Both the position numbers and the translations under genes were made by a program. The notes under the pieces were generated by a model. The model worked only from the letters and a program-made list of their open reading frames with translations. It was not told the origin of the DNA and made no database searches. Source: Hydrolagus colliei (taxonomy: Eukaryota). From it: a DNA stretch of 64,000 nt. This document shows positions 17,177-50,753 of the stretch, one piece after another. The stretch lies in contig CM068747.1 of the NCBI GenBank assembly GCA_035084275.1, positions 25,482,001 through 25,546,000 of the forward strand, in the 5' to 3' direction. Numbering within the stretch: position 1 is the first letter of the stretch; every line of letters starts with the position of its first letter.

Positions 17177-17344
17177 GAAACACTTGAAGAACAATGCAGT
17201 GATAGTTGGTTCAATGGGACCAACATAGTGACAAATCTTCACCACGTTATTAACTATGTTCGAGTCCGGGTTCCAGAGAATGCCCCTGAGGTCACCAAAG
17301 AGACACCTGCCAGTACCAGCTCAGATACCTCTACATCTGTGCAG
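17177..17344 (+). CDS. UBR3: UBR3 exon (ETLEEQCSDSWFNGTN...NYVRVRVPE...TSVQ)
   Basis: ttgaag| ... CAG|gttagt; phase 0-0. Confidence 0.9.
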
Positions 17345-18099
17345 GTTAGTTTAATTGCACTTTAATTCAAGTGCAATTAAAATTGCTATCTTTAACTGTT
17401 GTTCAAAAATATGTGAGTTCATGTTGTCCATTATCTGTGTGCGAGCATTTCACACAGCTCTTAATTGGTTTTTGTTTGGGTAACCCATAAAATAAATTCA
17501 CTGTGCTTACTTTAGAGGTTGATATGTTTAAGGAAATAATGTACTTCCCATGTTAGACAAGTAGTTCTGTACAAAGTGCTTCTTTAGCAATTATGTCCTC
17601 ATTCTGTTCCGAAGGTGATGAATTGCCTTGAATGATCTCCTGAGGGCAGAAAGCGACTATTGTGTATGTGCTTTATCTGTTTCCTGGCTGCATTTCACTT
17701 CAGCTGAAGTCTATAAGACAAAAGGAAGGGTTTTTTAAATTAGTCGTATTGAAACACTGAAGTAGTGGTGGACACATTGTATTTTGTCTTAGCAAGCCAA
17801 CATGATTGATAGATTGGATCAAAGCAGAAATCCATCAGTGTGCCTTCTTCCTCAAGTTGACAAGGGTACAGAAGTCGATTTTTAACTTCTACCACAATAC
17901 TGAATTCTATTTTAGAATTTTGTCATCTTTAGCAAACTACTGAGCTGTTGGTTTCACACAACATCCAAAACAATGGTTACACTTATGAAGACACATTTAT
18001 GAAGTTTAATTAAGGATGTCCTAATGGAACACAGTGTGGTAAATGGAAGCTGCCTTTCAGCTGATGAAAGGCATTGTGGACAATTGAAAATTTCTCTGT

Positions 18100-18385
18100 C
18101 GCTCTTGTAGCTCAGTGATTAGATCACTCGCCTTACAAGCGTGAGACCTGTGTTCAAATCCACGCAGGTCAGGGCGAAACCTTGGGCAAGTTTTAAACTG
18201 TCCAAAAAACACCACAATAATAAAAATTGGTTATTTCAATCCGTGACTATGTGCGACACTGCCGTATGCAATTGGCTGCCGCGTTTCGCCCAAGTATACA
18301 GTCAATTCACTTTACAGTATATTCCGTGAAGCTTTGAGACGTCGATAAGATGTGAGAAGCGCTATATCAAATGCAAAGATTATTA
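18100..18385 (+). mobile_element. tRNA-derived SINE
   Basis: Same family. Confidence 0.9.
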
Positions 18386-19059
18386 TATTAACATTATCTA
18401 TTTTCAACTGTCCAGTTGGTTATGATTAAATAATGGGCAGTGAACATTGGTGGTAAAGCTTTAGAATAAAAATATTTATATTTCTAGAATATTGTCGTGC
18501 TTTACTCACACCATTAGATTTAGATTGATATTCTGCAGTTTGGACTTAGCTAAAGAGCAAATAATTTATACTTTGCATTTGGAAAAGAGGGGGCTCCTTA
18601 TAGAGGGAAGTTCCTTATAGCATCCCTTAAACATGCCTCTGGAAGCTCCACATTTAATGAAAATTTATTTTCTTTATCTAATGAAAATTTTACAATACTA
18701 ATAATAATCTTTTTGATAATACTGCAGTACCTTTCAAGTCAGGGGGGATGTTCCAAAGTGCTTCACAGGATTTACTGTGAAGTGGAGCCACTGGGCATTT
18801 ATAGGTGAATGTGGCAACCCAATTGCATTCAAAAGAGCCATGAAGGGAATGACCAATTGTGTTTGGGGGATTTTGGGCCAAGATACCGGGCAATACTCCT
18901 TTTTCTTTTCAAACACTGCTGTGGGATCCTTAACGTCCACTTATAACACCCGCCCCCCCCCCCCCCCCCACACACACTGCATTGGAGTGTCAGCTTGTGA
19001 GATGAAGTCCTGACACGGAGGTGAGAATGCTACCACTGAGCCAGGACAGTTGGGAATGA

Positions 19060-19310
19060 AACCAGGAAGCATTTTTTTTCACGTGAATGATTGAGAAAAT
19101 CTGGAATTCTCTCCTCCAAATAGTTATGGATGCTTGGTCAATTGCAACATTCAAGACTGGAGATCAATCAGTATTTGTTAAGTAAGGATATCAAGTGATA
19201 TAGAGAAAAGGTGGGGAAATGGAGCTGAGATATAGATCAGCCATGATCTAAAAGACCCCCCCACCCACCGAGGCCTGAGGGGTTGAATGACCTACTCCTG
19301 CTCCTATGAC
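19060..19310 (+). mobile_element. CR1 LINE 3' end fragment
   Basis: gatcagccatgatct ... cctactcctgctcctatg. Confidence 0.7.
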
Positions 19311-20001
19311 ACACAAACTAGGCTGCCACACAGATTTGAGTATTGTACTATGTATTTCAGATTAGAAATAAATTATAGCTTCTAGTATTCTACAATGCTA
19401 GGCAGAGTAGCATATATTGTTTTCAGTAAACTCATGTTTGAAAAGACTTGTATGTTTTTGTCTTCTGATTCTTTTGCATGTTTTGTGTATTTTTCTTTTT
19501 GTTTCCTTACATCCATCCACTTTTTTTGTTGCCTTTCTTGAGTGCGGTTGAGAAGGGGATTGATTTGTACACCTCTTATTCAATCAATAATAATCAATCA
19601 ATAATTACATTTATATAGCACCTTTCATGTCGGGAGGATGTCCCAAGGCGCTGAACAGTCAGGTAGGGACCAGAGCAGCGGGGAGGGGTCGGGGGAAGGA
19701 GAGTAGGAAAATTTACTGTATATTTGTGGGCGAAATTCTCCCATGATTCCTGTGGTAATACACAGGCTTGATGGAAAAATGTTTTTGTATGCAAAGGAAA
19801 TAGTTTTTCCTCCTTAATTTTAATTTCTATTATTGTTTGTGGGTTGGTTGCTGCTGGTTTTGTCTGCTAAGATTAAAATATTCCACAACTTCTGAAACAG
19901 CAAACGTTTACACCGCCTGCAGACCAACATAAGGTGTTTCACAACACTTGTGTTATTATACCTTTTTACTCTGCTCTTCTGTGTTTTTCTCTCTATGGTA
20001 G

Positions 20002-20034
20002 GGTTCAAGAAGGTCCTCTGCCTTCAACCGAGAG
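20002..20034 (+). CDS. UBR3: Candidate alternative microexon, 33 nt (GSRRSSAFNRE)
   Basis: Long pyrimidine tract + tatggtag|, GAG|gtactt donor; phase 0-0 like the host intron; no stop. Confidence 0.65.
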
Positions 20035-20458
20035 GTACTTTTAATTGTCTTGCTTTGAATAATCTGCCTGCCTGCCAGCATGGCCTTTGTTCCTGCCTAA
20101 AATGTTGCTCCTAAAAATTAGCCTCACAGGTGACACAATTGAGAGCACTGTTTAAAGTTGTTTTACTTGATTCAGGTCATGCCTTTTAAGTTACAACTAA
20201 CTCCGAGTACATCTGTAACCCTATCCTTTATGTTGTGATTTATACAGCCTGTCCTGATTTCATAATTTTTTTTGTGTGTGAAATCCAAAATTATTCCTTG
20301 AGTGATGTTTGAATGCATTTGAAAGGTGTATTTTATTAAAAACAGTGCGCAAAATTGTTTCCCATCAGGTGTGACGGTAGTTCACATTGACACTATTTTT
20401 ACTTTTCAAATCTAATGGTAACATTTTTTAAAAGTGTTTTTAAATTCCTCTGTTTCAG

Positions 20459-20922
20459 AATTCAAATGCAGCTCAGGTCTTTAGCTTAGTCGCAGAACGT
20501 AGAAGGAAGTTTCAGGAGATGATAAACAGCAACAGTAGCAACGCTAATCAGCCTCCAGATGTCAGGCCAAAGACATCGAAATGGACAACTCCTAGTTCAA
20601 CTCCACAACTAACGACAACCATTTTAGAAATCCGAGAAAGCATGCTGTCTCTTCTAATCAAGCTTCATCATAAACTCTCAGGAAAACAAAACTCTTACTA
20701 CTCATACTGGTTAGAAGCTTCAGACTCCGCACCTCGGGTAGACTCAATGAAACAGATTCACGGCGATGGCATCACCGCCATAGAAAGGATTTTAGCGAAA
20801 GCTGCAGAACGCAGTCGTCAGAACCAGAGCAGCATTGAAGAGATTTGTCAGAAGGTGACACCACCTCTACCTCCTAAGAAGAGCAGCTCATCAGATAAAA
20901 AAGCTTTAGACAAAGAAGAAAG
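20459..20922 (+). CDS. UBR3: UBR3 exon, 464 nt (NSNAAQVFSLVAERRRKFQE...LDKEER)
   Basis: tttcag| ... AG|gttagt; phase 0-2. Confidence 0.95.
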
Positions 20923-24136: not shown

Positions 24137-24225
24137 ACGTCAAAAAGCCAGAGAGAGACAACAGAAGCTGCTTGCTGAATTTGCTTCAAGACAAAAGAGT
24201 TTCATGGAAACTGCAATGGATATTG
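24137..24225 (+). CDS. UBR3: UBR3 exon (RQKARERQQKLLAEFASRQKSFMETAMDI), basic-rich region
   Basis: ctgtag| ... G|gtaagc; phase 2-1. Confidence 0.96.
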
Positions 24226-25348
24226 GTAAGCTTTTAAATATTTAAATGAAAATATATTCTGCCCTAATCAGAGATCATTTTCTCAGTGTTTTGTACTCTC
24301 AGGTTACTTAGGAGGAATCCAGCATACTCTTTGAGCTGTAAGCATCTTTGACCAACAACTAACTGTCAACATAATGTTGAAATGGACAAACATTAGAATA
24401 GGAACATGAAACCTTTACACAATTAATATTATTCATTGGCTAAGATGGAAAAGAGTAATTGGGTGCATTCATTGATTTGCACACGTCAAGATGCATATTA
24501 CTGAGTGTCATTGAATTTATGCCCTTAGGGGTGGGGGGGAAGGCGGAGGGAAAGGATTACAGTAGAAAAACATTGTAAAATCGTTCCTCAAAACGTTGAA
24601 TGAGGTGGAAAGTTTGTGCTGTTCTTCCACAGACTATGTAAAATACACTCCTATCGGACCTTCCATTCCAAATGGCCTTTTTTTCTTTACTTTCTCCATG
24701 TCGTGTTCTAGATAGCCTACTCTACTTCATAATTTATTTAACTGCTGAGTACATCACGTTAAAGTTGATTTTGGCTAATAGGTTACAGAAATAGATTAGA
24801 ACGCTGCTCTTAATTCTCATAGCATTTTAAATTGAAATGATAACTTAGGCCCTTGAGGGTTTGGCTGTTTTATCATTTTGGAAGTCTTCAGCTATCCATA
24901 AGACAAGGCAAATGAGTAATGTGGAAGATGAATTATGCCTTGACAGACAGATGATGGTTTTAGTGTGCGTTATATTTACGCTTACCCCAATTTGCAAACC
25001 GAAAGTGTAGGAATTGATGCCTGATAGATTTCAGGTTTGCGAGAATTTTTATGGGCTGTGTATTATATGCGATTTATGTTTTGTGTCATATCAAATTCAG
25101 TTTAAAAATGTAGTGAAACAGTTTTTTTTTTTGCATTTTGTTAAATGTTATGCAGCCTAACCATCCTTGATCTCTGGAGAGCCTTTATATTAATTGCCTA
25201 ATTACCATTTGCACAGTACACATCCTGTATGGTGTGTGTTTTTTTGCCATAGCGGTAAATGAGTGATATTATGTTTGAAGCATTTGAGCAAATTAGTTAT
25301 ACAGTGAAAAAATTTAAACTAAACAAGTTAATTTTTTTTGTGTGTACA

Positions 25349-25612
25349 TACAACTACAACAACAACTTTGATTTATATAGCGCCCTCCACGCTGGATGGC
25401 GTCTCAGAGCGCTTCACAATAACGGATCCTGGGACCGAGCCACGGGCAGGGGTAGAAAGGTGATCAAAGGCGCGGTAGAAGAGAAAGGTCTTTAGCTATG
25501 ACCTGAAACTGGGAAGAGGAGGGGGCGAGGCGAAGGGAGTGAGGAAGGGAGCTCCAGAGCCTCAGGGCGTAATGGCTGAAGGCACGGCCGCCGATGGTGG
25601 AGCAGAGGACAT
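25349..25612 (-). mobile_element. L2-like LINE 3' fragment (second subfamily)
   Basis: caacaactttgatttatatagcgccctccac tail, also seen at 42674 and 61171. Confidence 0.7.
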
Positions 25613-27136
25613 ATAAAGATCACAGAAAAAGATCTAGACTAGGAATCAATTTGTGGAAATTCATATTGTTTCTTAAGAGAATCTTGAAAAGGAAGAATTT
25701 CCCGGGTTCTGGGGTAAGAGCTGGGGAGTGGGACTAGTTGGTAACTCTTTTAAAGAGCTGGCACAGGCACAATGGGCCTCCTTTTGTGTTGTAAGATTCT
25801 CTGATAAATGTTTGCTTTTTCTAAAGATATATCTCTTGTAAATGATGAGCCCTGAATTTAATTTGTGTTAGTAAAGTGATCTTGTAAAGGCTACCTAGCT
25901 ATGTGCGACTTGAGAAACATATTTCTCAATTGTTTCCAGTGATATTGGGTGGTCGTCGAAAACCTTGGGTGAGATAGGTGGAAAAATCCTTTCTTTTAAT
26001 ATACAACAACCAAGGTGACATCAGGAAAAACCTTGCATTCTCTGACTGCTGAATCTAGTTAGAAAAATAAATGAGTTTGAAACTCCCTTTTGGGATATCT
26101 GGTGAAGGGTTAGGGCAGAAGATCATAAACTGCTAATCGTTTTCTGACTCCAGGGAACTACCTTGACACACAGTGTTTAGTAAGGGGAAAATGTTCTTTG
26201 CAATTAGAGACTTTGAAGTGTACTCAGCAATATCTTGACATAGTTATCAAACTTTTGAACTACGATAGACCAATTTCCTTGGGATTCAGAATGAAACAAA
26301 ATATAAGCAATAACAGTGTCATGACCTTGATGACACTGATAATGGACAACATCACATGTTGGATGTGACTTGTGTTCTCAGCTCTGGTTGGGTTTTCTAT
26401 TCAGATGTTTCATAGTTGTGGCATTGGGGAGGAGGGCAGCTTTCTTTCTATTGACTGAACACACTTTCCGTCTTGTCCTGCTGCTTAAATGCAACTAATG
26501 AGTTTCTTAGCTAATGCTTTATTGGCATGTAATTATGTCATGTAATTTAAGCCTGGAATTTTTTATGGCATTTACAGACATTTATGTAAGGGCTATGAGA
26601 CTGGACTTTGGTATAATATTAGTCATTAAAGTGGTTGCCGATGTGCCTGGTCTAATACATTTCAACTGATAAGTATGTTTATAACTCAAATTGTACTTTG
26701 GGAAAGTGAATGACTGTGCACTTCAATTCATCAGATTTAAATTGCTGTACTGATGAGGGTTAATCGGTTATAAAGGTTATATGTGCAGTAAGTGCAATGG
26801 GAAGGGAGTTAATTTGTGAGTTTGTGAACTGAGATTTTTGGCCAAGTGTGGGTGGGGGGATGAGTAACACAATGGGTAACTATGAGTAACTACAACCAAT
26901 CATTTAAGCGTTTAAATCTATATTTGATTCAACCCCCAACTTGGGTGCAAACCCTTCACTAGCCAGCGCCTTGGGACGTCCTTCTAACATGAAAGGCGCA
27001 TTTTAAATGCAATTTGTTGTTATTGTTGTAGTTTTAAAAAACACTTCTGCATTAACATAGAAGAGCCATCTTTGTTACGGTATTAAAACAATTTTATAAA
27101 AACGAGTTCCATTCGTGTGCTAATTTATCAATGAAA

Positions 27137-27150
27137 CCACTAGATGGTGG
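27137..27150 (+). promoter_or_regulatory. CTCF-like motif CCACTAGATGGTGG
   Basis: One mismatch to consensus; motif only. Confidence 0.35.
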
Positions 27151-28345
27151 TAGATGCTTGGTTTTATGAAAAAAGGAGCAGAATTTAGTTTTTGAATTAA
27201 CAGAAGTCTTATTTAATCCCTTTTGCTGCCTATAATCAACTTCCATTTTTGTACAAAACATTACCACTGCAGACCTTAGTAGTAAAATCTACCTAAAGCA
27301 TTGATTGACTTAATGTAAGATTGAAGATACAGTAAATATATTTTTGATAATACAGAAATTGCCAGCGAGGATGGTTGTGGTTTTCCTAAGGAAGTTGGTT
27401 CCAATTTTAAAATGTCTAATGTTAAAACACAGGGAATTGATTTCCACTATGGCCCATTTTGATATTGATATTTTTCTAGTATTTTACTAAACAATACTGT
27501 ACATTGTTTAGTAAAATATTAGAAAAATAGTACATTTACCTATTTTCTGGTAGGATTTGTTTTGAATTGAAAGGTGAATTCTAATTCAATTAGGCACCAT
27601 TCTGACAAGTTTGGAATTTGTATATGTTTTGTATGTGTCAAAAATGTTCAGCGTTATGAGTGTGTATTTAAAATACATAAACTATGGTGACGGTGAATAT
27701 TCGTGCATCCGGAAAAATAAATAAATTGGTTCATTTTGCAGAATTGAAGTGATTTGTATGGCAACCTATGTTTGAAGGAAACAAAAGTTACCATCTGTAT
27801 TTTGTAGTTCACTTTATTGTGTGAATATAGCAATTACATCTGCCAGTTTCTATGGATGATTTATATTGTTTTTGTCAATTATTGGCACTATAGTAATACA
27901 GCGTGTTATTGTTGCCTGAAGCAGTAATACTATATATAGCTTTAATCATGAAACATGTCTTCTATTAACTGTGCCAGAGCAATTTTCCTGTACAGTTAAT
28001 AGAAGACCTTTATTTGACCTTTTATCAAAATATATTTTGGTGTATTTTCATGAAATTGAAAACAATTTGGTGACATTTAATTTAACATAGTTCATTTCGT
28101 GTTGTGGTTTTCCTAGTTGGTTCCAATTTTAAAATGTCTAATGTTAAAACACAGGGAATTGATTTCCACTATGGCCCATTTTGATACGATTTCCAACTTT
28201 ATGGAACATTTTGAAGTTGGGGTTGTAGTCATTTATGGAAGCAATTTCCTCCTCTTAATTTTATAGACATGGTAGATCCTTTGGGTTCAGTATTTCCCTG
28301 GCAAATGTCACTGGGGTTCTGAATCCCAGCTGTGTTGTTTTTGAT

Positions 28346-29232
28346 TAAGAACATAAGAACTAGGAGCAGGAGTAGGCCATTCAGCCCCTTGAACCTGCCC
28401 CGCCATTTGATAAGATCATGGCTGATCTTCTGATCTAACTCTAATTACCTGCCCTATCCCCATATCCCCTAATCCCTCTATATTTTAAAAATCTATTCCA
28501 TAAATTCACTACCCTTTGAGTAAAGAAATGTTTCCTCAACTCTGTTCTAAAAGGCTGACCCTTAATTTTAAGTTGTGACCCCTGGTTATAGTGTTCTCCT
28601 ACTAGGGGAAACAGTCCCTCACTGTCTACTTTATCCACCCCTTTAAGAATCTTATATGTTTCAATAAGATCTCCCCTAATTCTTCTGTACTCTAGAGAAT
28701 ACAGCCCTAGTCTATTCAACCTATCCTCATAGGTCAGTCCCCTCATCCCAGGAACTAACCTAGTGAATCTACGCTGCACCTCCTCTAAGGTAAGTATGTC
28801 CTTTATTAAATAAGGAGACCAAAACTGCCACAATACTCTCGGTGCGGTCTCACCAAGGCCCTATACAGTTGCAGCAAGACTTCCCTACTCTTATACTCTA
28901 AACCTTTTGCGACGAACGCTAGCATGCCGTTTGCCTTCTTAGTTGCTTGCTGCACCTGCAAACTAACTTTTTGAGACTGGTGTACAAGGACACCCAAATC
29001 CCTTTGTACACTAACACTATCTAACCTTTCCCCTTCCAGAAAATAATTTGTTTTTTTATTTTTGCTACCAAGGTGAATAATTTCACACTATCCCACATTA
29101 AATTCCATCTGCCACCTATTTGCCCACTCCCCTAGCCTATCTATATCCCATTGCAATCTTATTGCATGATCCTCACAGCTGACTCTCCTACCTAGTTTAG
29201 TATCATCCACAAATTTAGACACCTTACATTCA
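28346..29232 (-). mobile_element. CR1 LINE 3' fragment (ORF2 C-terminus plus 3' UTR)
   Basis: ORFs 28806..28997 and 28441..28833 (LYRALVRPH, QFWSP, EEVQRRFTR, RGDLIETYK, FFTQRVVNLWN); TTCTTATG tail. Confidence 0.92.
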
Positions 29233-30522
29233 ATTGAGAATGTTTTGTAAGCCATAACAAATTGTATTTATATAGCGCCTTTCACATTGGGAGGATGTCC
29301 CAAGACACAGGACAGTGAAGGGTCTGCACCCGAGCTGGGTGCTGGAATCAAGAATGGTGGAGGACAAGGGGTTTGGAGGTGAAAAGGTGACTGAAGCTGC
29401 AATCTATATGGTTAAACTAAAATTCAGGACTAGGTATGTCTGTTGGCATGCTTCTATATGGGGATTTAAGGTTTGGTAACTCATTGAGTCATCGGAGTTC
29501 TGATAATCCACAAATATTTTGTTTTGTGTTAAGTGCATCAAATTGTGATTGATAAATTAAATTAACAAATTAATAAAAAAATTGATTAATAAATAAATAA
29601 ATGTAGCTTTAGCATCTCTCTCGTAACACTCTGGAGTCCAAGAGCTCCTGCGTTCCAGAGACGGTCTGTCTCTTGTTGAGGAAGCAAGCAGGGAAGCACA
29701 GTGAACAAACAGGGACTTGGAGAGGTCGAGCCTGGAGGTGATGGAGCCATAGAGCTACGCTGCAGCATGAGTCAGTGACTTTGGGAAGAGTTTTTTTTCC
29801 CCCCCCTCCAGTTTAAAGAAAAGCAGAGCAATCATTTCAAAGAGAAACTTAAGGTCACTGCGGATCGTACTTTGTGTCTGACGTGAGCAACTGTGCAGCC
29901 TGTCACCTCTAATTAGAAGAAAGTTGAATTCAGCACTGTGACATCTTGGTTTATAGGAGAGAGATGAGACGTCAAACCTGTTTTAATCAGTTCAAAAGTT
30001 TGAAAATATATATATATTCAAATCCTGGACCTATTAAATGGGTTCATTACCAAGCTTCCTTGTGTAGTTCGAAAGTTCTGAATAAACACTGTCTACGTAA
30101 ATTCACATAGTCGAGTCTTTGTTTCATGTCAAAGATTGGATTGCTATACTGATGCTGAATAGCTTTGAATGGCTTTCGCTAATGTAATATGCTGGGTCAA
30201 ATTCACGGCAGCCCAGATTTTAGCTTCATAATGATTGGAAATGAAATGTTGAGGGTTTTTCTGTCCCTTGCAGCTATCAACTGTCCTGGTCATACACGTT
30301 ACTAACCTTTTCCAGTCCTGATTTAAAGTGAAGGACGTCAATAGTGTTTTTCTGCACAGGATATTAATGTGTTCTTAAACCATCTGAATATCTAAAGTGC
30401 AAGAGAAAGATAGATGAGTGTCAGTCTAATTTGACTCGTTCTTAGTTAAGTCTCTGCAAAAGCACTTGTCTTAATTATCGTACAAAATAATGAAGAGACT
30501 GGTTGATGTGCGAGCCATAGTT

Positions 30523-30711
30523 CAGTAAAAGCTCATTTATCCGGCACCCGATCAACCATAACTTCCGTATAACCGGCATCACAAAAAAAATCAATAAACC
30601 GGAATTTATCCGGAAAAATGCATTAATTTTTTTTTTCGGCCGAATATCCGGCAGGCGCTTTAACCGGCATTGGTCAGGTCCCGAGGGTGCCAGATAAATG
30701 GGCTTTTACTG
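30523..30711. mobile_element. MITE family A, short form
   Basis: CAGTAAAAGCTCATTTATCCGG ... CAGATAAATGGGCTTTTACTG-TA. Confidence 0.85.
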
Positions 30712-31130
30712 TAATACAATACTTTTATATTTTAAAAAATCCTTTCACTTCATGTAAATGCATGTTTTGACTAATGTTCCTTCCTCATACAAGTTCACAT
30801 CAAACAAATTCCGATTAATTGACCACTTAGTCAACATAATACAATAACACACTGGAGGCCAGTTTTGTACTGTGGGCGAGTGGCTAGGGCGGAGGGAGTG
30901 AGAATCCTAGGAGTATGAGTGTTGGGGCCGATGTCCTACTTACGTGCTTGCTGTGTGTCTAGAATCTATAAGCAACAGATGTGCGTCACGGTTCTGTGCA
31001 GGAGCTCTCGCAGCACTGCCAAAGGCTAAATGCAACCTTATTTGGCAGCTTATTTTTTTGATGCAAAAGGCCAAATATGGAAAAATTGGGGATGATTTAA
31101 TCTTCTCAAGGAATAACCTAGGGGAAAGCA

Positions 31131-31162
31131 CATATATATGTATATATATATATATATATATA
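31131..31162. repeat. (TA)n microsatellite
   Basis: Direct read; others at about 34625-34650 and 40342-40358. Confidence 0.9.
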
Positions 31163-31215
31163 CATTGAATTCATTTGAATCTACTGTGTCCTGCCTTCCT
31201 GTTTTTAATCTGCAG

Positions 31216-31269
31216 GCATTGAGGGTGAGGCTTTTTCTGGTATTGACATGAAGAATTTGCTGTCCAGTG
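31216..31269 (+). CDS. UBR3: Candidate cassette exon, 54 nt (GIEGEAFSGIDMKNLLSS)
   Basis: cctgccttcctgtttttaatctgcag| ... G|gtatgt; phase 1-1 like the host intron; no stop. Confidence 0.7.
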
Positions 31270-31601
31270 GTATGTTGTACCTTTGGGTCAATTGCAAGTG
31301 CAAGTACAGGACAATAGGTGATGGATGTACCAGTCGGTCTATAAGGAGATGTCTTTGTGCCGATAAGCAGCCTATAAATAAACTCTTATGATTTTAATGA
31401 ACTGTTAGACCTACGCAGGTTTTGCCTTGCGTGCTTATAAACAGAGAGGTGAGCAATTGAGATTGTGGATAACAGTTGTGTGATGGGCTTGCATTTCACT
31501 TTGTGTGGATGATGATCTGCGTAAATGTGCACGTGTTTTATCTTGCATCGATTTGCCCACTTGGTTGGATCCTCGATGCAGATTTTCTTTCTTCCTTTCA
31601 G

Positions 31602-36234: not shown

Positions 36235-36410
36235 GTAAGCATCAGTGTAAGGCTAAGCAATCATTTGAATCTAAAATTGAAGTTCTTTTACGACGCTGTT
36301 TTGATTTTTGTGCTGTTAACCTCATTTAACACTTTCATTTGTTGTTAGTAGAATTAATGGTGAATTTTGTAATGGTGAATCAATTTGCGACCTTTTTATT
36401 TCAAAAAGTG

Positions 36411-40030: not shown

Positions 40031-42313
40031 GTAAGTACAGCATGAGTCATTTCAGTGCAAGTCATTTATTTGATCAGCAGCCATCCAGCGAATCCACAAG
40101 TACGTAACTAATGTATAGTGAATGATCATTTGAATTTGTCCTTTTGTTCCATAGCCTTTTTGTGACTGAATCATTGAGAGTTTAGAATCCGTATTTCTTC
40201 TCACTTCAGCAGCAAGTGTCTAACCACATGGTGCAATATAAACTTCCTTTTCGTAGGCTAGGATTTGTACCCAATGAGATACAAGACGGGTGTTCATTAG
40301 CATGCTTCAATCTCAGCCATTTCTGGTGAGGTGTGAGTAAGTATATATATATATATATAAATGTTTATCATTTGCCTCCAGTCTTGCGTTTGTTTAGGCA
40401 ACATTACGGAAGAGGGTTGTCATTGGAGCTGAGGAAATTGGTTGCATTTTGAAAATGGAGGGTTGTTGTTGTGTGTGTGTGTGTATACACAAATAGCTAG
40501 CTGCATCATGCCTATGCAGCCAAAATAGATATACTACACCTGACTGACCTCAGACTCTACAATCTACCCTTGGGCGTTATTTTCCACAGTGCGTTATAGT
40601 TTTTATATATACTGTATTTAAAAAACATTGTAGTGTATTACTATGTTTTTAATTTTGACCTGGAGTGTAAAAGCAATGGAATAAACTTAATAGTAGAAAC
40701 ATAGTGTTTTTACATCACATTTTACTGACATTGGATAATAGTTATTTTTAAAAACAAATCTGTGCAGAGTTCATTTTTTTGTCACTTTGTAAACCATATC
40801 CATGCAATAGTTCCCAGTTATCTGCATTTAGATAAGGATTCATGTTCAATAGTTTTGAACAGTTAATTTATTTAATTTACCATTGCTGGTAAAATTCTCA
40901 AGCTATCCCTTGATAGCTGAAATGATGTCTGAAAATTTAAGACACATGGCAAAACTGGTTTAATAAAATTAGTGATTACTACTAAATAGAATCTTAAATT
41001 AGTCTATATAGGCTTCTATTATTCACTTATTTTAATGCTCCTTTGTTACATTCATGTATGTAAAATAAGGTACAGTTTTAGAAGTTTTCATTATTTTTTT
41101 CCCCCATCTGAAGATTTATTTCTAAAATGTTGCTGCTTTGAGATCTTTGCAGCACGTTTTGCGGATTGTTTGAAAGCCAGGAGATTTTGACATCCCTTTG
41201 TTCAGATGAAGTAAATGCCTTTGTGTAGTAGAAGAAGCATATTTTTCAAAACGATCTGGTTTTAACCCCTGCGTATCAAACACCTGGATTGGATAATGTA
41301 GAAAGTGGATCGGAAAATGTATGAAAGCCTTTCTTAGTTTGGATTATGTTAGCCTGATTAGTTTTAGTGTGAACATTGTACTCATCTTTAAAAGGCTGAA
41401 CCCAATTGTGATTAACTGCTGGACATTAATACTGCCTGCCAAGTGTATCATTTGTTCTCCATTGCTAATTTGGCTTGCATCAGTGGTCAGATCTAAGGTC
41501 CTCTTAGGTTATGTGTAAGTATACATTCTAGATTAAGCAAATATTTATATTTTCTTGCTTTTTTTAAAAAAAAGAAAGATTGTGAGGGTGGAACAAAGCA
41601 CGCTGCGGCCTAAACAAGATGCTCTAAATTCATTCTGATATTTCAGTCACATTTGAATTTGTTCTTAATCAGGTTGTTAACACTGACCTCCTGTACTGGT
41701 GAGATAGTAGACATTTTATACAGAAAACGTTTCATTAGATTTTCTACTTGTCTAGTAGCTATTGATGCTCTTAAAATTGGATGGCTTTTCGGTGATTAAG
41801 TGTTGCTTGACACATTGTACTTACAGTAAAATTTGTTGATTAGATACTGTAGAAATTGAGAAAATGCTGTCCTTGGTGAGTTGTTACAGCTGAGAATATC
41901 AAAGGAGAAAATGGGAACAAATAGGTCAGGTGCTGTTTGAGTAGATTGCATTGTGAGGAACCGATTCTCTTGGGAACTGGAAATTAGTAATGATTGATGT
42001 AACTGTCTGTGATGCTGACGGAGACTGTATGACGGAAATGGTTGCGTCGAGGACCATAATGTGAACGCAGTGATCGAGAAACTGTAGACAGTCATACAGC
42101 AGTGAAAGGCAGACTCTGTGTGTGTGACATGTTTGCTGAATGTGACATTTCATATTGGACTTAGGTGTTCGCTGAGTCGTCATTGACAAATCTGTATCAG
42201 AATTTCAAACAGGCTTTGCAATAAACCCTTTTAATACTGAATGGATTTTGCGCCAACAAAAGCATATTGTAATTTGCTGCCTATATTCTACAGAAAAAAA
42301 ATACATCAAGTTA

Positions 42314-42534
42314 CAGTAAAAGCCCGTTTATCTGGCACCCTCGGGACCTGGCCAATGCCGATTAAAGCGCGTGCCGGATATTCGGCCGAAAACTAAATAA
42401 ATAAATAAATAAATTTTCTTCAATGCATATTTCCAGATAAATTCCGGTTAATTGAATGCGGACTTTTTTTTTTTGCAATGCCGGTTATACGGAAGTTACG
42501 GTTGATCGGGTGCCGGATAAACAGGCTTTTACTG
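42314..42534. mobile_element. MITE family A, short form
   Basis: TA-CAGTAAAAGCCCGTTTATC ... GATAAACAGGCTTTTACTG-TA. Confidence 0.88.
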
Positions 42535-43149
42535 TATATAGATTCAAATCACATTGGCATACATGAAATATTGTCTGAATAAATCTACAAATAGAATTTT
42601 CACGTCTTTAAATAGTTTTGCTTTGGTACAACTGTCAACTGCAATTCTTCGAAAACTACAGTATCAGTAGTCTACAACAACAACAACTTGGATTTATATA
42701 GCGCTCTCCATGCCGGACGGCGTCTTAGAGCGCTTCGAGCCTCGCCATTGAGGTCATGAAGATCAGTGTAGTACAGCAGCTTTGTGCAAATCCTATTTGT
42801 ACGTTGAAAAGATGTGATTGTGATAAAACACCAACTTAATTACATTTGTATAGTAGGGAACGGCGATATGGGAATTTTCCGGATATGGATATATCGATTG
42901 GCTCGTATCGAGATATACCGAAATACCGATATTTTCAGTTTTTTCGTTGCGCACGCGCATCGGAGTGCGCGCGCATTCCGGGTGCGCACGCATTCGGGGC
43001 CTATCTTCTCAGGAGGTAAATATATTTCTCTCTCTGTGTCTCTCACTCTCTCCATCTCTGTGTTTTTCTGTCTGTGTCTCTCTATGTCTCTCTCCCTCTC
43101 TCCTCTCTCACATCCCCCCCATCTCTATCTATCTGTATATTATCACATC

Positions 43150-44088
43150 CACCCCGTCTCTCCCCCCCCCCCCCCCCCCCGCCATCCCTCTCTCGCACCC
43201 CCCACCCCCGTCGTCTCTCTCCCCCACCCCCCCCCCAGCCGTCTCTCTCTCCCTCCCCCCCCAGCCGTCTCTCTCCCCCTCCCCCAAGCCGTCTCTCTCC
43301 CCCTCTCCTCCGTCTCTCTCTCCCTCCCCCCCCAGCCGTCTCTCTCCCGCTCCCCCCAGCCGTCTCTCTCCCCCTCTCCTCCGCCCCCCCCCCCCCAGCC
43401 GTCTCTCTCCCCCTCTCCCCCCCCCCCCCCAGCCGTCTCTCTCCCGCTCCCCCCCCAGCCGTCTCTCTCCCGCTCCCCCCAGCCGTCTCTCTCCCCCTCT
43501 CCTCCGCCCCCCCCCCCAGCCGTCTCTCTCCCCCTCTCCCCCCCCCCAGCCATCTCTCTCCCCCTCTCCCCCCCATCCATCTCCCTCTCCCTCTCCCCCC
43601 CAGCCATCTCTCTCCCCCTCTCCCCCCCAGCCGTCTCTCTCCCCCTCTCCTCCTCCCCCCAGCCGTCTCTCTCCCCCTCTCCTCCCCCCCCCAGCCTCTC
43701 TCCCCCTCTCCTCCTCCCCCCAGCCGTCTCTCTCCCCCTCTCCCCCCCCAGCCGTCTCTCTCCCCCTCTCCCCCCCCCAGCCGTCTTTCTCCCCCTCTCC
43801 CCCCCAGCCGTCTCTCTCCCCCCCAGCCGTCTCTCTCCCCCTCCCCCCAGCCGTCTCTCTCCCCCTCTCCTCCGCCCCCCCCCCCAGCCGTCTCTCTCCC
43901 CCTCTCCCCCCCCCCCAGCCGTCTCTCTCCCCCTCTCCCCCCCATCCATCTCCCTCCCCCTCTCCCCCCCAGCCATCTCTCTCCCCCTCTCCCCCCCAGC
44001 CGTCTCTCTCCCCCTCACCCCCCCCCCCCCAGCAGTCTCTTTCCCCCTCACCCCCCCCACCAACAGCCGTCTCTCTCCCCCCACCCCT
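43150..44088. repeat. C-rich minisatellite, unit approx. CAGCCGTCTCTCTCCCCCTCTCCCCCC
   Basis: Dozens of tandem variant units, directly visible. Confidence 0.95.
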
Positions 44089-44152
44089 TGCATACCTGTA
44101 TATTGTATTCGAGGACTATGAATACAAGATGGCGGCTTTGCACCTCGGTCTG

Positions 44153-46404
44153 CAGGGCCGTACGCAGGATTTTTTTTGGGGGGGTGCGAATTGCTAGTGA
44201 AGGGACCAACAATGGCCGGGGGCTTGCGGGCTGCCCCCGAAGCCCCCTCGAGACTCCGACGTTTTACACAGTTTGAGGTCTTATTTAATCGGTTCAGAAG
44301 ATCCAATATGAACGGTAAATGTTTCATGCCCTTGGTGTTTAAGAGCATCATTATTTATTCAGTGTTTTTATTTTCCCCGGTAGTCCGTGTCTAAATGGGA
44401 AGGTCGAATGTGTTCGCCGATAAAAGCCAACACGATTGTTGACTCGATGATGTAAGGAATGCGAACGATAAAGTAAATTACAATCCAATTAACACAGTAC
44501 AATGACGAATGCTTGATAAATGTATGCGTATAGAGAAAATGATCATAAACTACAGATTGACGGTAATTAATAAGTTGTTCTGCATTGTTATCCTAAGACT
44601 CAATTTCTTTCGGACTGTAATGAACAATAATGTAAGAGTAAAGTATGAATTATGTGCTCAGATATTCCAGCAAAGCAAATTTTATAAAAGACAAGAAAAT
44701 ATACAGAAACTGAAAATCAGTGTCAAACAGTTAATTCACACGTGTTACAAGCCTGTTATCAGCATTATCCTGAAAATATCGTTGAACTGTGAGCAATAGT
44801 GTAGTTAGTTTTTATTTATTTATTTAGAATCAAAATGAAAGGCAGTGACCCATCAAGCAATACTGACCTGACGAAAAAATACTTGAAAAAATAAGGGAGG
44901 GGAAATTAATTCTTTAATAGCGTTCGGTATTCGAGACGCCTCGGTCGCTTTGAAGCCAATATGTCAACCGCTCTACCAATATCGATTTCCATATTATAAT
45001 GAATGTGCATTAACGCGAGGGCTGAAAGTCGCTCCTATACGGAGCAGAATGCTGGACACTTAGGCAAACCTCGACCAGGAGATTAGGTGACTCGTGAGGT
45101 ATATACCAGGCTTCTAAGAGACGCCCTGAACGTTTACTGGCGACAGCATCTGACAAATAGCTATATGGTACACCACCACACTGGTATCACAGACATTACT
45201 GCAGAGGCGTCTTAGGTTTAGCGGACATAGCTGGAGAAGCCGGGAGGAAACTGTCCATAGTCCTACTGTCCTATGGGAACCATTGCACGGTCACAGAACA
45301 CGAGGTAGACCGACCCTAACCTACATCGATACTCTGGAGCGCGATTGGGGTATTGGCAGGCGGGAGTGTTCAGGCTGCATGGAGAGAAGGGATCAGTGGA
45401 GAAGTGTGGTTGTCAATGCCCGAGTTCGCTCGATCGGATGACGGTGAAACTATTTTTATGCCAAATTCGTGCGACATTGATGTTTTTTCACTCTGGGTAC
45501 AAAACTGAATGTGAAATAATGTAGCACTGTTTATCTTTGCGGTAATTTTTTTTTGCATGCCAGTGGACGTCTCTAAAGGCAATTTTTAATTAGAGGAATA
45601 CATCTTTAATAATGTAAATCAAATGTGATAATCAAGACAAAACAAGAAACATGATATTTCAGAAACACGCCTATCAAAACTTAAGTCATTTTTACTTACA
45701 TTTATCAGATTAAAATACGATTTCAGCTTCCACAAAGTGGTGCTACCTTTTTATGTAGTGACTGTATACGGGATGATTTCCGATTGACACACCACGTGGA
45801 ATAGGCGCTAAAGCCTAGGCCTACGTCCATGAGTATTTTTTTAAAAGATAGGCATTCCCGTCCAGACACATATAACTTTTTTGTTGGGTTCTCAAAAGCT
45901 TTAATTTCTAAGAAGCTTGTACATATGTTGTCATTGTTTGCTAGCATTACAGTCACACCTCTCAACACTTGAGTCATTTTTACTTACGGTGATCAGATGA
46001 AAAGATGATTTTAACTCCAGAATTGGTGCTGTCCCTTGTGGCTGTTTCCGGGATGATTTCCAAACGAGGATGGGTTTGAGTCTTGGCGCGCGCCTATGTT
46101 TATCCAATCACGAGTCACAGACTCGCCGCGTCATGGACTGGTCTATCGACGCGGTATGTTTTGGGTAGACGCCGATTCTGGTGTGCGACTCGATAATTTT
46201 ATATTAATACTAAATCATTCAAAGATGTGTGTTTATAATTTATACATAGTTTTGAAGAACTGATTGTTGCACAAATGTTCAATAAATTTACTTGGTATTT
46301 AAATTTGATAAAAAAATGCAATTCTCTACCCCGGAAAATGTGGACCTTTTATAATTTGGGGGGGTGCGTACGCACCCGTCGCACCCCCCCTGCGTACGGC
46401 CTTG
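44153..46404. mobile_element. Nested TIR DNA element
   Basis: CAGGGCCGTACGCAGG ... CCTGCGTACGGCCTTG (15/16); GTCTG on both sides. Confidence 0.8.
45020..45441 (+). mobile_element. RTE/RTE-X-like LINE ORF2 C-terminal remnant (frameshifted)
   Basis: Translated pieces LLYGAECWTL, YTRLLRDALNVYWRQHLTN, RRLRFSGHSWR, VLWEPLHGHRTRGRPTLTYIDTL. Confidence 0.75.
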
Positions 46405-48276
46405 GTCTGTGCATTGTGTTTCGAGATGAGCATTCTGGGTCTTGTAGTTGATTGTGCTCGCAGCCCGATTTTTTACCTCGATATATCGTTTTTCGATATA
46501 TCGGTATTTTTAAAATGTCTATATCGGCATATCGATATGAAAATCATATCGGGTTTTAGCGATATACCGATATATCGCCGTTCCCTATTGTATAGTGGCT
46601 TTCACATTGGGTGGCCATCCCAAGGTGCTGGACAGTCAGTATTTCAGACCCGAGCTGGGGTCGGGATCGGGGAGGGTGAACGGAAAGAAGGTGAGTGGGG
46701 GGCAGGAACATAGGTGTTCTTTACAAGAAGGTCTTTATCTTTTGTCACATGGCAGTATCATTATTTGGTTAATCCATCTTGAAACTGTGTGAGGGGAGAA
46801 GTAATGGTGGAGACGGGCCATGTTACAAGGGTGAGACCAAGTTGAGTGGGTAAGAACACTAATGTGGGCTTTGGGAAACCCTACCCTTTGGCAAGTCGCT
46901 TTTTAAATCCAGTTTCCTAATTAGCTGTTAATTTCCATGAGTCTTAATCCTTCAAACTCTGATATGCTGAATGTCAGCAAATGTCTTTTGAGAATTCATG
47001 TAAATTATTTCTACCAGACAACCTTCATCCACTGGTGTCACAAATCCAGATCATTGAGGCTTTTGAATCCAACTTGACTATGTGACAGATGAGTTTGGAA
47101 GAGTCTGGTATTATCTTAAGATTTCTTCCTTTTCCTCCTTTTGTTTTTACAAGCAGTTCAACTTTAGCGTCTATTTATATCCCAAAGTATTAACGATTTA
47201 ATATTGGGCAAATATGCTCCTAGACTTTTTTCTGTTTCTAACAACAACAAAATTACATTAGTAGAGAGCCTTTCACGTTGAGAGGGTATTATTTAGTTAT
47301 TTAGGTGGCAGCTAATCAGGAAAATTAATGTTGGTGTTTCCACACATGCAGAATGTGATTGTAATTGTGTTACTCACACCATAATGTCTTAACAGCATGT
47401 CAATTTTAAAGCAAGTACACAAAGAAAAGTCACCTCCGTTGAATGTTCAGTTACCTAGAGTGACAACAGTCGCTGGTGACTGGAAAAGTGTACACCGTTG
47501 GCAGAACTACTTCAAAGTAGATCGCTCTTTGTCAAGTGTAATATTGTTGGTGGCATCTGACCCACAGTGGAAAGCATTTAGTTTTTCTGGTCAAGTACAA
47601 TGTGAGTTCAATGTAGAAGTCACTTGCACCTTTAATTATTATACTTTGAATAACTTTTTCAAGCTCTGGACTGATATGGTATTTAAAATTGGCAGGAAGT
47701 ATTATTTCTATGCATTATCGTTTTACAGTGAGTTACTTAATCCGAAGGAATCCATTTGGGGGCAGTATGAGTCTAGCAGATCAAAAACATGTCCAGCCTC
47801 AGAACTTGGCAAAAGGCAAAATGGTATTTCATATGCAACTTGAGCAGCACAATATGTTGATGTTTAAAAGAAACGGCATACAGTACTTATTGAAACTATT
47901 TATTGTTTGGTTCTGTATCTTCTTCTGATATACTGTACAGCCAAGGGACAACGAGAGGAATGTGAAAGCTTGTGGTACTTGCAACAGAATTACAGGTAGA
48001 CTGAAATGGGAAGGAAGGAAGGAATGAAGGGACATAAATTGTTATTGAAACAAGATAAGGTCTAGAGAACTGAAGAGACAGACAAGATCAAGGCAGATTT
48101 TTAAATGCAAAAATCACGTGCAATCAAGTGTTTTTTTAAAGAGTTTTATGAATATAAAGTCAATGATGCTGCGAGCTAGAAAGTAAAATTGTATCCTTCA
48201 GCTCTGACCCCCAAAAATCAAAGCAGAAATCCCCCCACACCTTTATATGTGCTTTTCCATTTTATTTTTCTGCATT

Positions 48277-48473
48277 AATAATCCCTCAAAAAAAAACACA
48301 ATAATGAAATGGGTCATTTCAATCCACGTCTGTGTGTGGGACACTGCTGTGCACAATTGGCTGCCGTGTTTCATCCACAAATATGCAGTCAATTCCCTTT
48401 ACAGTAGAATCTGTGAAGCGCTTTGAGACATCAATAAGATGTGAAAAGTGTTATATCAAATGCAATAATTATT
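48277..48473 (+). mobile_element. SINE, 5'-truncated
   Basis: Core plus tail. Confidence 0.85.
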
Positions 48474-50753
48474 CTTTTTCCTGCATTACAGTTACATGTT
48501 ACAATTTTTCTCTCCTTTGGATGTGAGCCCATATATTAACCCCCAGTTCATTTTATCAAAGAAATAATGTATGGAAAATGTGCAATAATGCAAGCTAATG
48601 TTCCAGCGACTTGGGACGTCCTCCCGATCTTAAATGTCACACACAACAATAATTTTGTCTTTGTTGAAAGGTAGCCAAAGCTGGCATCTTACCAGCACTT
48701 TATTATAGTACACTACATGTTTTAGCAGGTCCAGAACAGACAAAATGGGCTGATTGGCCTCCTATCCTGTAAACTTTCTGAAATTGCTATTACCCTCATG
48801 CTTCTTGAAAGTTTTTTAAAAATATATAATTTTCAAATAGACCTAAGTTGGGACCATTTGTACTCCTACTGAGTGCGGAATTAAGAATGAGAATGAAAAT
48901 GTATGAAGTTATTATCAATATTTTCTCAGATTCTGGTGGTTTGCTGATGGGACTGTTTTGTGGGACATTTCAAGGTTATGATTTTGAAATTGAATAGGTG
49001 TGAGTGCTGTAGATCACGGGGTATGTGGTTGTGATTTCTAAGAATTAATGGACTCTTCAAAACCTGCAGCTAAATATTGTGTTCTTAATTCTTAAATCTC
49101 TAGACTTTCACAGTGCAACTGAATTCTAAGGATGTGCTGTGATGAACAACCTATGTGTATAAAGAAAGGTCTTTTTGCTTGGATTTTTCTCTTTGGTCAG
49201 ACTTGACCAAAAAAGCAGAAATTCTGCTTTCCAGCTCGCAGCATCATTGGGGGTGAATTTACATTGACTTTATATTTATAAAACTCTTTTGTGTGCGATT
49301 TTAGCATTTAAAAATCATAATCACTAGTGTTTTACATTAAACCTGCTATAAGCAATTTCCCCCCCCCAAAGAATCGTTAATCTCATGTGAGTGGGGGAAT
49401 AATTATTTAGTCATAATTATGTTTGATCACTGTTGCAATACGGGGTCAACAAGTCTCGCATGTGAGAATGTATAATCAATGTTGTGTCCTAGATTGGTAA
49501 TTTAGAAATGATGCATTGAAAAATGTACATTTTAAAACGTAGCTTTTTATCTAAAGCCGCAGAAATACATTTCGCTTAGCGTTTCGTTGCGTTTTGAATA
49601 TCTCGCTCGCTGAACTGTCAATGGCGTAGGGTGAAAATTTAAACAGACTCTTTTCTTTAAAATGTTGTCGATGATTGGCTCTCATTATCCTCAATTTTTT
49701 TTAAATATCCATCACGTGGCCCAGTCACCTGCGTTTTGCTGGTGCCTCCGGCTCCTAATCACTGCCTGCAGCTTCTCAAATAATTGAAGATCGAGATGGT
49801 CCTGCAATTGATTGCCATCATCTGCTGCCTGAATACAGAACAAATGAGGATGAAGTGATTTGGCAACCGCTCTTTGCAAACAGCAGCGATTTCAGAAAAT
49901 GTGAAAGGCACCTCGGAGATTACTAGTGAAATCAGTTTTAATTATTTTTAATGTTTAAGTAAACATGTGGTATTGAGTGAGTGTAGAATAGAATATAAAT
50001 GAAATACTGTGTTTGGCCACATAATGAAATGCCCGACCAAGTTTGTTCTTTTTGTGTGGCATTTGGAACTGTCTTGTCTGATCATTATTAGCCTAAATGC
50101 GGGTACATAACTTTTTTGTTTCAATAGTGGATGAAATTAAATAGCTGTTATAATGGGAAAGACATGCAAATTGCTCTGAACCCTTTGAAATATTTAGTAT
50201 TTCAGTGACTTGGGATGTCCCCCCGACATGAAAGGCGCTATCTAAATATATAGTTGTTATGTTTTTTTTTAAATGGTACAGAAGAGCACACTGCTGCTCT
50301 TCTGGACTAAAAGTTTCTCTGAAGGCTAACAAATCAAACCCTACTTGTCAGATTCAAATGGATGTTAAGTTAATGTTCATGTAATGAACTTCATGTAATG
50401 TGTACACTTTGTTTCTTGCCCGTTTCTTACAGTAAAAAATATGCATATTGAATGCAAACATCACTTTGTTTAAATGGCACTTGGGTTTCTGGTCTATTTT
50501 TTTCCCCAAAGTTTTCACTTCATATAAGCTATCATCGGGTATTGTAATTTAAAGTATTTTCCTCAGTGGTACCCATGGAAACCATGATTTTAAAAATGAG
50601 CAAGTATGGCCTTATGTAATTTGATATTATTGGGCTCTGTTGCATACCTTCAACTGGAGAGCAATTTGGAAGCATTAATCCATGATGTGGATCAGATTAC
50701 TGAGCTAACCTCTTGCCGAATCCGATTGTAAAATGCTTCTTTTTGTGTTTCAG

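Follow-up and report, generated by a model that had tools for sequence, protein, structure and literature searches.

A conserved 33-nucleotide cassette exon of UBR3 in the chimaera Hydrolagus colliei and the kinase sites predicted to come with its inclusion

What might a 33-nucleotide (nt) exon contribute to UBR3 when its 11 residues, GSRRSSAFNRE, are spliced into the protein? The exon lies in the 64,000-nt stretch of the Hydrolagus colliei genome analysed here (the window; contig CM068747.1, positions 25,482,001 to 25,546,000). A first-pass annotation, made from the sequence alone, had described it as a hidden microexon that adds an internal PKA site and works as a tissue-specific phospho-switch. 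By tblastn, about 31 collinear exons on the + strand match UBR3 proteins between positions 760 and 63697 of the 64-kb window, and the UBR box of UBR3 falls upstream of it. The UBR3 proteins of relatives carry the domains PF02207, PF22960 and PF18995, in keeping with an architecture of UBR box, winged helix and PRT6_C. The exon that follows the cassette is 94% identical to UBR3 of the elephant shark Callorhinchus milii and 76-78% identical to shark and ray UBR3. The features discussed below are collected in Table 1.

Table 1. Positions in the window of the UBR3 cassette, its neighbouring exons, candidate sites and motifs; a slash marks an exon-intron boundary
Feature	Position	Strand	Remarks
Constitutive UBR3 exon 5' of the cassette	17177..17344	+	168 nt, ends ...TSTSVQ, phase 0 donor CAG/gttagt; from tblastn, splice scan and the skipping junction in reads
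Cassette pyrimidine tract and acceptor (tag)	19961..20001	+	66-nt AG-free zone; TGC 19972-19974 within the tract
Cassette exon GSRRSSAFNRE	20002..20034	+	33 nt, phase 0-0; inclusion junction reads; elephant-shark RefSeq GSRRSSAFSRE
Site A codons R-R-S-S (internal RRx[S/T], PKA-type motif)	20008..20019	+	not conserved in non-avian amniotes
Codons F-N-R-E, giving the -5 hydrophobic residue and -3 Arg of the junction-spanning CaMK-type motif (site B)	20023..20034	+	consensus from PMC9336311
Donor gtactt and downstream motifs	20035..20201	+	six YGCY 20051-20109, GCATG 20078, ACTAAC 20196 (candidate MBNL, RBFOX and QKI sites); definitions from PMC12721327 and PMC2853123
Constitutive UBR3 exon 3' of the cassette	20459..20922	+	starts N-S; Ser codon 20462-20464 is the site B acceptor; conserved AQVFSLVAERRRKF helix then follows
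Best 54-nt candidate exon	31216-31269	+	phase 1-1, in frame, ctgcag/...GTG/gtatgt, IEGEAFSGIDMKNLLSS in the middle; intron 24225-31601

That the cassette is a real exon is practically certain. Its sequence reads ...ctctctatggtag/GGT...GAG/gtactt, between the donor after 17344 and the acceptor before 20459, with all junctions in phase 0, and it ranks first among 150 stop-free, in-frame AG..GT candidates of intron 17345-20458 by a crude pyrimidine-plus-donor score. The coordinates, tract, donor, phase, peptide and absence of a stop given in the first-pass annotation all match the sequence, and a length of 33 nt places the exon within the micro-exon definition of PMC4317164 (<=51 nt). Both splice forms occur in RNA. 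The reads came from three single-cell RNA runs, X3 to X5, that carry one shared sample code; 27-30% of each run was read, and over the 464 nt of the downstream exon their source shows five fixed differences from the window (about 99% identity). The inclusion junction 20034^20459 (GT..AG), which had been proposed as a check of the exon, was found in five reads (four in X3, one in X5 and none in X4), those of X3 having four different starts and at most 33 letters on the short side. Skipping (17344^20459) was found as well: among the joints listed, in one read of X3 and 12 of X4; by loose ends, in 13 reads of X4 and four of X5; and in one contig of X1, a run of more distant source. The 33-nt UBR3 cassette is an alternative exon, with both inclusion and skipping forms. 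Included reads made up 4/5 in X3 and 0/12 in X4 (Fisher p=0.002, calculated on reads that are possibly mates or duplicates), and this gap between libraries of one sample code is suggestive only and is not evidence about tissue. Repeats spanning 18003-19808 dominated read matching over the host intron, in which high-copy interspersed repeats, abundant in the RNA reads, occupy 18100-18390, 18650-18900, 19050-19300 and 19550-19750; many introns of the window contain similar repeat sequence.

The exon is conserved, and hidden it is not: elephant-shark RefSeq models (C. milii ubr3, XP_042192181.1 and XP_007888159.1) already carry GSRRSSAFSRE at the same junction, identical to the chimaera peptide in 10/11 residues, with Ser there and Asn here. 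Among 217 UBR3 proteins, 84 have an insert of 10-12 residues at this junction, 124 have none and 9 are unscorable. Among vertebrates the sample covers the jawed groups, and the scoring rule included a terminal R-E/Q, so that the invariance of these residues is partly a product of the rule. Long linkers without terminal R-E/Q (P0076, P0433, P0435, P0443, P0450, P0456, P0475 and P0502), which resemble gene-prediction read-through, were disregarded in the insert count, as was P0483, a skip form; P0441 was left out too, and so were further records of a species already represented. Frame and length (10-12 residues) are conserved in every jawed-vertebrate group sampled, teleosts also retaining the cassette, and this junction holds the sole recurrent 11-residue indel of full-length UBR3 proteins. 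Same-species isoform pairs agree with the junction reads that the exon is alternatively spliced: in Scyliorhinus, Heptranchias and Mustelus the cassette peptide is the sole difference, and in Xenopus, Amia, Lepisosteus and Denticeps it differs together with other small indels. Some records vary in other ways. The exon encodes 10 residues in the bird records P0031, P0032, P0169, P0171, P0172 and P0176 and in the frog records P0066, P0087 and P0093; in carp, catfish and knifefish (P0421-P0432) the loop that contains the insert has an expanded (ER)n tract ahead of it; and the tilapia UBR3 record P0218 bears the source name 'MFS transporter (molybdate-anion transporter)', apparently a mislabel.

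Splicing catalogues already hold a mammalian exon of the same kind. In the accessible part of PMC4317164, a UBR3 exon of 33 nt figures in Supplemental File 1 as one of 310 human micro-exons, novel at the time, from brain, muscle and nerve samples, in a screen in which brain samples predominate; the same part does not place it among the 145 brain-specific micro-exons. In Table S4, the portion of PMC5630039 used here, the human exon HsaEX0068976 (chr2:170804415-170804447, 33 nt) is classed as SwitchAS, with a mean PSI of 8.0 and a range of 0-99.5 in 96 samples, and so is the mouse exon MmuEX0050341 (33 nt; mean PSI 6.2, range 0-95.3, 126 samples). Switch-like behaviour in human and mouse, as far as that table goes, fits the proposal that the exon is regulated. 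The chimpanzee UBR3 isoform X7 carries SSRRPKVLQRE at the same junction, and gene, length and primate isoforms together make it likely that the chimaera cassette is the counterpart of HsaEX0068976. The cassette is an ancient exon, already present in RefSeq models and probably listed as a switch exon in splicing catalogues. It did not appear in the available supplements of PMC12148930 (12/20 files), PMC9303857 (12/18), PMC5577920 (one file) or PMC4801060 (three files), and the Ubr3 cassette given in what is accessible of the PMC5989265 supplement is another one, about 134 nt long. Among the freely accessible papers listed by our literature searches, we found none on the function of the UBR3 cassette.

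A further claim concerned a 54-nt exon, which together with the cassette was to add 29 residues, about the extra size of a supposed longer human isoform. Taking the candidate at 31216-31269 to be the exon meant, we found no 18-residue insert at its position among 314 scorable UBR3 proteins, and the link of 11+18 residues to a human isoform is unsupported. Two bat isoforms (P0075 and P0141) have a 6-residue insert, EKIFSS, at that position. The segment 8770-8822 was rejected as the '54-nt exon'; it has 53 nt and is present in 182/186 proteins. Elsewhere in the window, tandem donors 12 nt apart at 36235-36246 (+) add or omit VSIS, a 4-residue indel by which isoforms of sharks, gar, Xenopus and mammals also differ; going by these protein isoforms, the pair is a conserved alternative 5' splice site. 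The block 42001-44000, which lies within the long intron 40040-50744 and is strongly skewed (GC 0.55, GC skew -0.48), is probably a C-rich tandem repeat.

RRx[S/T] is the PKA consensus, and in the chimaera this motif (site A) lies in a region predicted to be disordered. We scored one insert-bearing, hand-labelled record per species (n=99, the species not being independent) and found site A in 68/99 species: 12/12 cartilaginous fishes, 35/36 teleosts, 12/12 amphibians, 6/6 birds, the coelacanth, the paddlefish and one unlabelled record. Where site A is kept, Ser and Thr interchange and the x residue varies. It is absent from 18/18 mammals, 6/6 squamates, 2/2 turtles and 1/1 crocodilian, which have kept the exon, and bichir, bowfin, gar and Takifugu lack it too. 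Because none of the exons of 27 non-avian amniotes has site A (0/27), a PKA switch cannot be the general function of the exon, nor can it apply to mammals. The idea that the exon adds a PKA site therefore keeps its footing in cartilaginous fishes, teleosts, amphibians and birds and loses it in mammals and non-bird reptiles, and a cAMP-controlled switch at RRxS is unlikely to be the whole account. The shortening of the bird exon to 10 residues creates an RRxS site, RRKS, which is absent from other amniotes, and brings an Arg to position -8 relative to the junction Ser.

A second candidate site spans the splice junction. Site B consists of hydrophobic-x-R-E from the cassette and x-S from the next exon, and it is complete in 61/61 species with a junction Ser, all of which thereby show the minimal CaMK-group motif (R-x-x-S/T with a hydrophobic residue at -5). 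In the 38/38 neopterygian fishes without the junction Ser, the -5 hydrophobic residue is replaced by H, P or N; this covariation counts as one evolutionary event, on the neopterygian stem. Of 114 skip-form records, two have R/K at -3, both with atypical linkers. At least one of sites A and B is present in 96/99 species, and bowfin and gar keep the cassette with neither. Such motifs are common, elephant-shark UBR3 having five of the CaMK type. Moreover, site B does not explain the Arg at -3, because this residue persists in the fishes that lost the Ser, and it may be the splice donor that constrains the last codon (Glu/Gln).

The insert may instead act without phosphorylation, by extending or capping a conserved helix and adding a basic patch, with the effect of altering the localisation of the protein or one of its contacts. 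In an AlphaFold2 model that covers 700 residues of elephant-shark UBR3 (38-sequence alignment, mean pLDDT 67), the insert falls between two strands, within a segment (model 337-418) of pLDDT <50, a predicted loop that agrees with the disordered Ser/Thr-rich linker expected by the first-pass annotation. A low-confidence helix (model 377-393) comes directly after the insert. The segment AQVFSLVAERR(R/K)KF is near-invariant among jawed vertebrates, which suggests a docking helix, and the loop of distant relatives is unalignable and 17-317 residues long. There was no solved UBR3 structure among 20 PDB matches, the UBR1/UBR2 alignments shown stop short of the loop, and yeast Ubr1 was the sole Foldseek match at E<=0.001. 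Several features of the inserts would suit a role of this kind. RR is present in 92/99 species, and R-E/Q ends all scored inserts, including those of the 38 fishes without the junction Ser, although this invariance comes in part from the scoring rule. Lys/Arg replaces the site A Ser/Thr in non-avian amniotes (the RR alignment is lacking in alligator), the teleost W-R-E-N-L/V-R-E abuts the helix, and bowfin and gar retain the exon without either site. However, Ser/Thr interchange at one position beside a variable neighbour resembles the conservation of a phospho-site, and AlphaFold2 gives no confident structure for the region. A phosphorylation-free role is a possibility to be taken seriously, if on balance a doubtful one.

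Alternatively, the exon may have been kept mainly for its splicing signals, the peptide itself being near-neutral. The loop is hypervariable, the middle residues of the exon vary, and the last codon is always NAG-compatible (Glu/Gln), as the weak donor gtactt would need; average inclusion in human and mouse is also only 6-8% in the table of PMC5630039 consulted. Yet frame and length are conserved across jawed vertebrates, 14/18 mammals have an identical peptide, and the same table records inclusion of 95-99.5% in some human and mouse samples. A near-neutral peptide accordingly strikes us as quite improbable.

In which cells the cassette is included may be hinted at by the motifs around it. Those noted in the first pass, namely a TGC in the tract, three TGCC copies, a GCATG downstream and a TGCATG at 19475, are all present. 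The TGCC copies start at 20065, 20069 and 20073, with a fourth at 20094, and the GCATG at 20078; ACTAAC at 20196 had been overlooked. The copy of TGCATG 527 nt upstream is unremarkable because the window has 18. Downstream, the first 100 nt contain six YGCY, a number that 0.27% of 1129 intronic windows match and that ranks highest among 32 exons; against dinucleotide shuffles it is not significant (p=0.28; TGCC p=0.07, GCATG p=0.12). A YGCY cluster, GCATG and ACTAAY come together within 200 nt at two places only in the window, by a test devised after the motifs had been seen. The second place, at about 28400-29300 (-), has fragmented reading frames that we take to resemble those of a retroelement reverse transcriptase. 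As far as the available parts of PMC2853123 and PMC12721327 go, MBNL, RBFOX and QK motifs (YGCY, GCATG, ACTAA) downstream of an exon are associated with its activation. The candidate motifs fit this MBNL/RBFOX/QKI, muscle-type pattern better than they fit SRRM4, which had also been proposed.

The cassette could instead be a neural microexon of the SRRM3/4 class. It is short and frame-preserving and has a UGC in the upstream tract, and the human exon was discovered in the brain-dominated screen of PMC4317164, to judge from its accessible part. In what is available of PMC13174390, the SRRM3/4 neural microexon class comprises exons of 3-27 nt, and SRRM4 requires a UGC between the pyrimidine tract and the 3' splice site. 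The cassette, at 33 nt, exceeds this range, and the nearest TGC lies 30 nt before it, inside the 5' half of the tract, with no UGC between tract and AG. The human exon is also absent from the 145 brain-specific micro-exons in the accessible part of PMC4317164, and the 12/18 supplement files at hand for the retina microexon paper PMC9303857 gave no UBR3 match. The SRRM4 reading is thus weak, and we think a neural SRRM3/4 microexon rather unlikely. Striated muscle fits better than neurons because near-complete inclusion in a few samples goes with low means and with absence from the brain-specific list. We assume that the VastDB sample set contains many neural samples. Inclusion in muscle or heart has, in our estimate, a slightly better than even chance, and neural inclusion a low one.

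We propose that these elements work together as follows. The downstream YGCY, GCATG and ACTAAC would let MBNL, RBFOX and QKI switch the cassette on in a few cell types, striated muscle being the likeliest. Inclusion would then set a hydrophobic residue at -5 and an Arg at -3 of the first Ser of the next exon, a predicted CaMK-group site missing from the skipped form and conserved from chimaera to mammals. Site A would be a second site, of PKA type, for lineages other than mammals and non-bird reptiles. Phosphorylation could tune the binding of a partner by the neighbouring helix and, through it, how active UBR3 is in those cells or which substrates it chooses. That a tissue-restricted insert adds predicted basophilic kinase sites beside a conserved helix, with the junction site kept in mammals, is the mechanism that we favour, while giving it somewhat less than an even chance. 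A broader version is that UBR3 becomes a kinase target only in cells that include an ancient muscle-type exon, through a CaMK-type site built across the splice junction, so that calcium or cAMP signalling would be tied to UBR3-dependent turnover, with lineages trading two predicted sites: both in sharks, amphibians and birds, the junction site only in mammals and other reptiles, and the PKA-type site only in teleosts. Taken in full, this version is rather improbable.

The exon itself was already known; our study adds splicing evidence from a chimaera, conservation across jawed vertebrates, the absence of the PKA-type site in mammals and the idea that inclusion builds a predicted junction-spanning kinase site. 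Knockdown of UBR3 raises cardiac Nav1.5 in the accessible part of PMC4568919, for which reason a muscle-restricted, kinase-sensitive isoform, if confirmed, would be important for heart biology. If the broader version is true, calcium or cAMP signalling would bear on the turnover of substrates that depends on UBR3, for example that of cardiac Nav1.5; a link between the cassette itself and Nav1.5 turnover is speculation.

Several known systems offer points of comparison. The human and mouse exons HsaEX0068976 and MmuEX0050341 resemble the chimaera cassette in gene, length (33 nt) and cassette mode, whereas the mammalian peptides lack the RRxS of the chimaera, and the introns flanking the human exon measure about 190 and 1670 nt as against 2657 and 424 nt in the chimaera. 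Like muscle-type exons activated by MBNL, RBFOX and QKI, the cassette has a YGCY cluster, GCATG and ACTAAC downstream, within 170 nt, as candidate sites. With SRRM3/4 neural microexons it shares shortness, frame and an upstream UGC, and it departs from them in length, in the misplaced UGC and in its absence from the brain-specific list, as far as the accessible sources show. In the part of PMC9336311 available, the CaMKII motif is R/K-x-x-hydrophobic-x-R/K-x-x-S/T-hydrophobic, with Gln preferred at -2. Site B resembles it in the Arg at -3, the hydrophobic residue at -5 and an acceptor Ser provided across the junction. Unlike the full consensus (basic -8, Gln at -2, hydrophobic +1), it has a disfavoured Glu at -2, Asn or Gly at +1 and, in the 11-residue form, its basic residues at -9/-10 rather than at -8.
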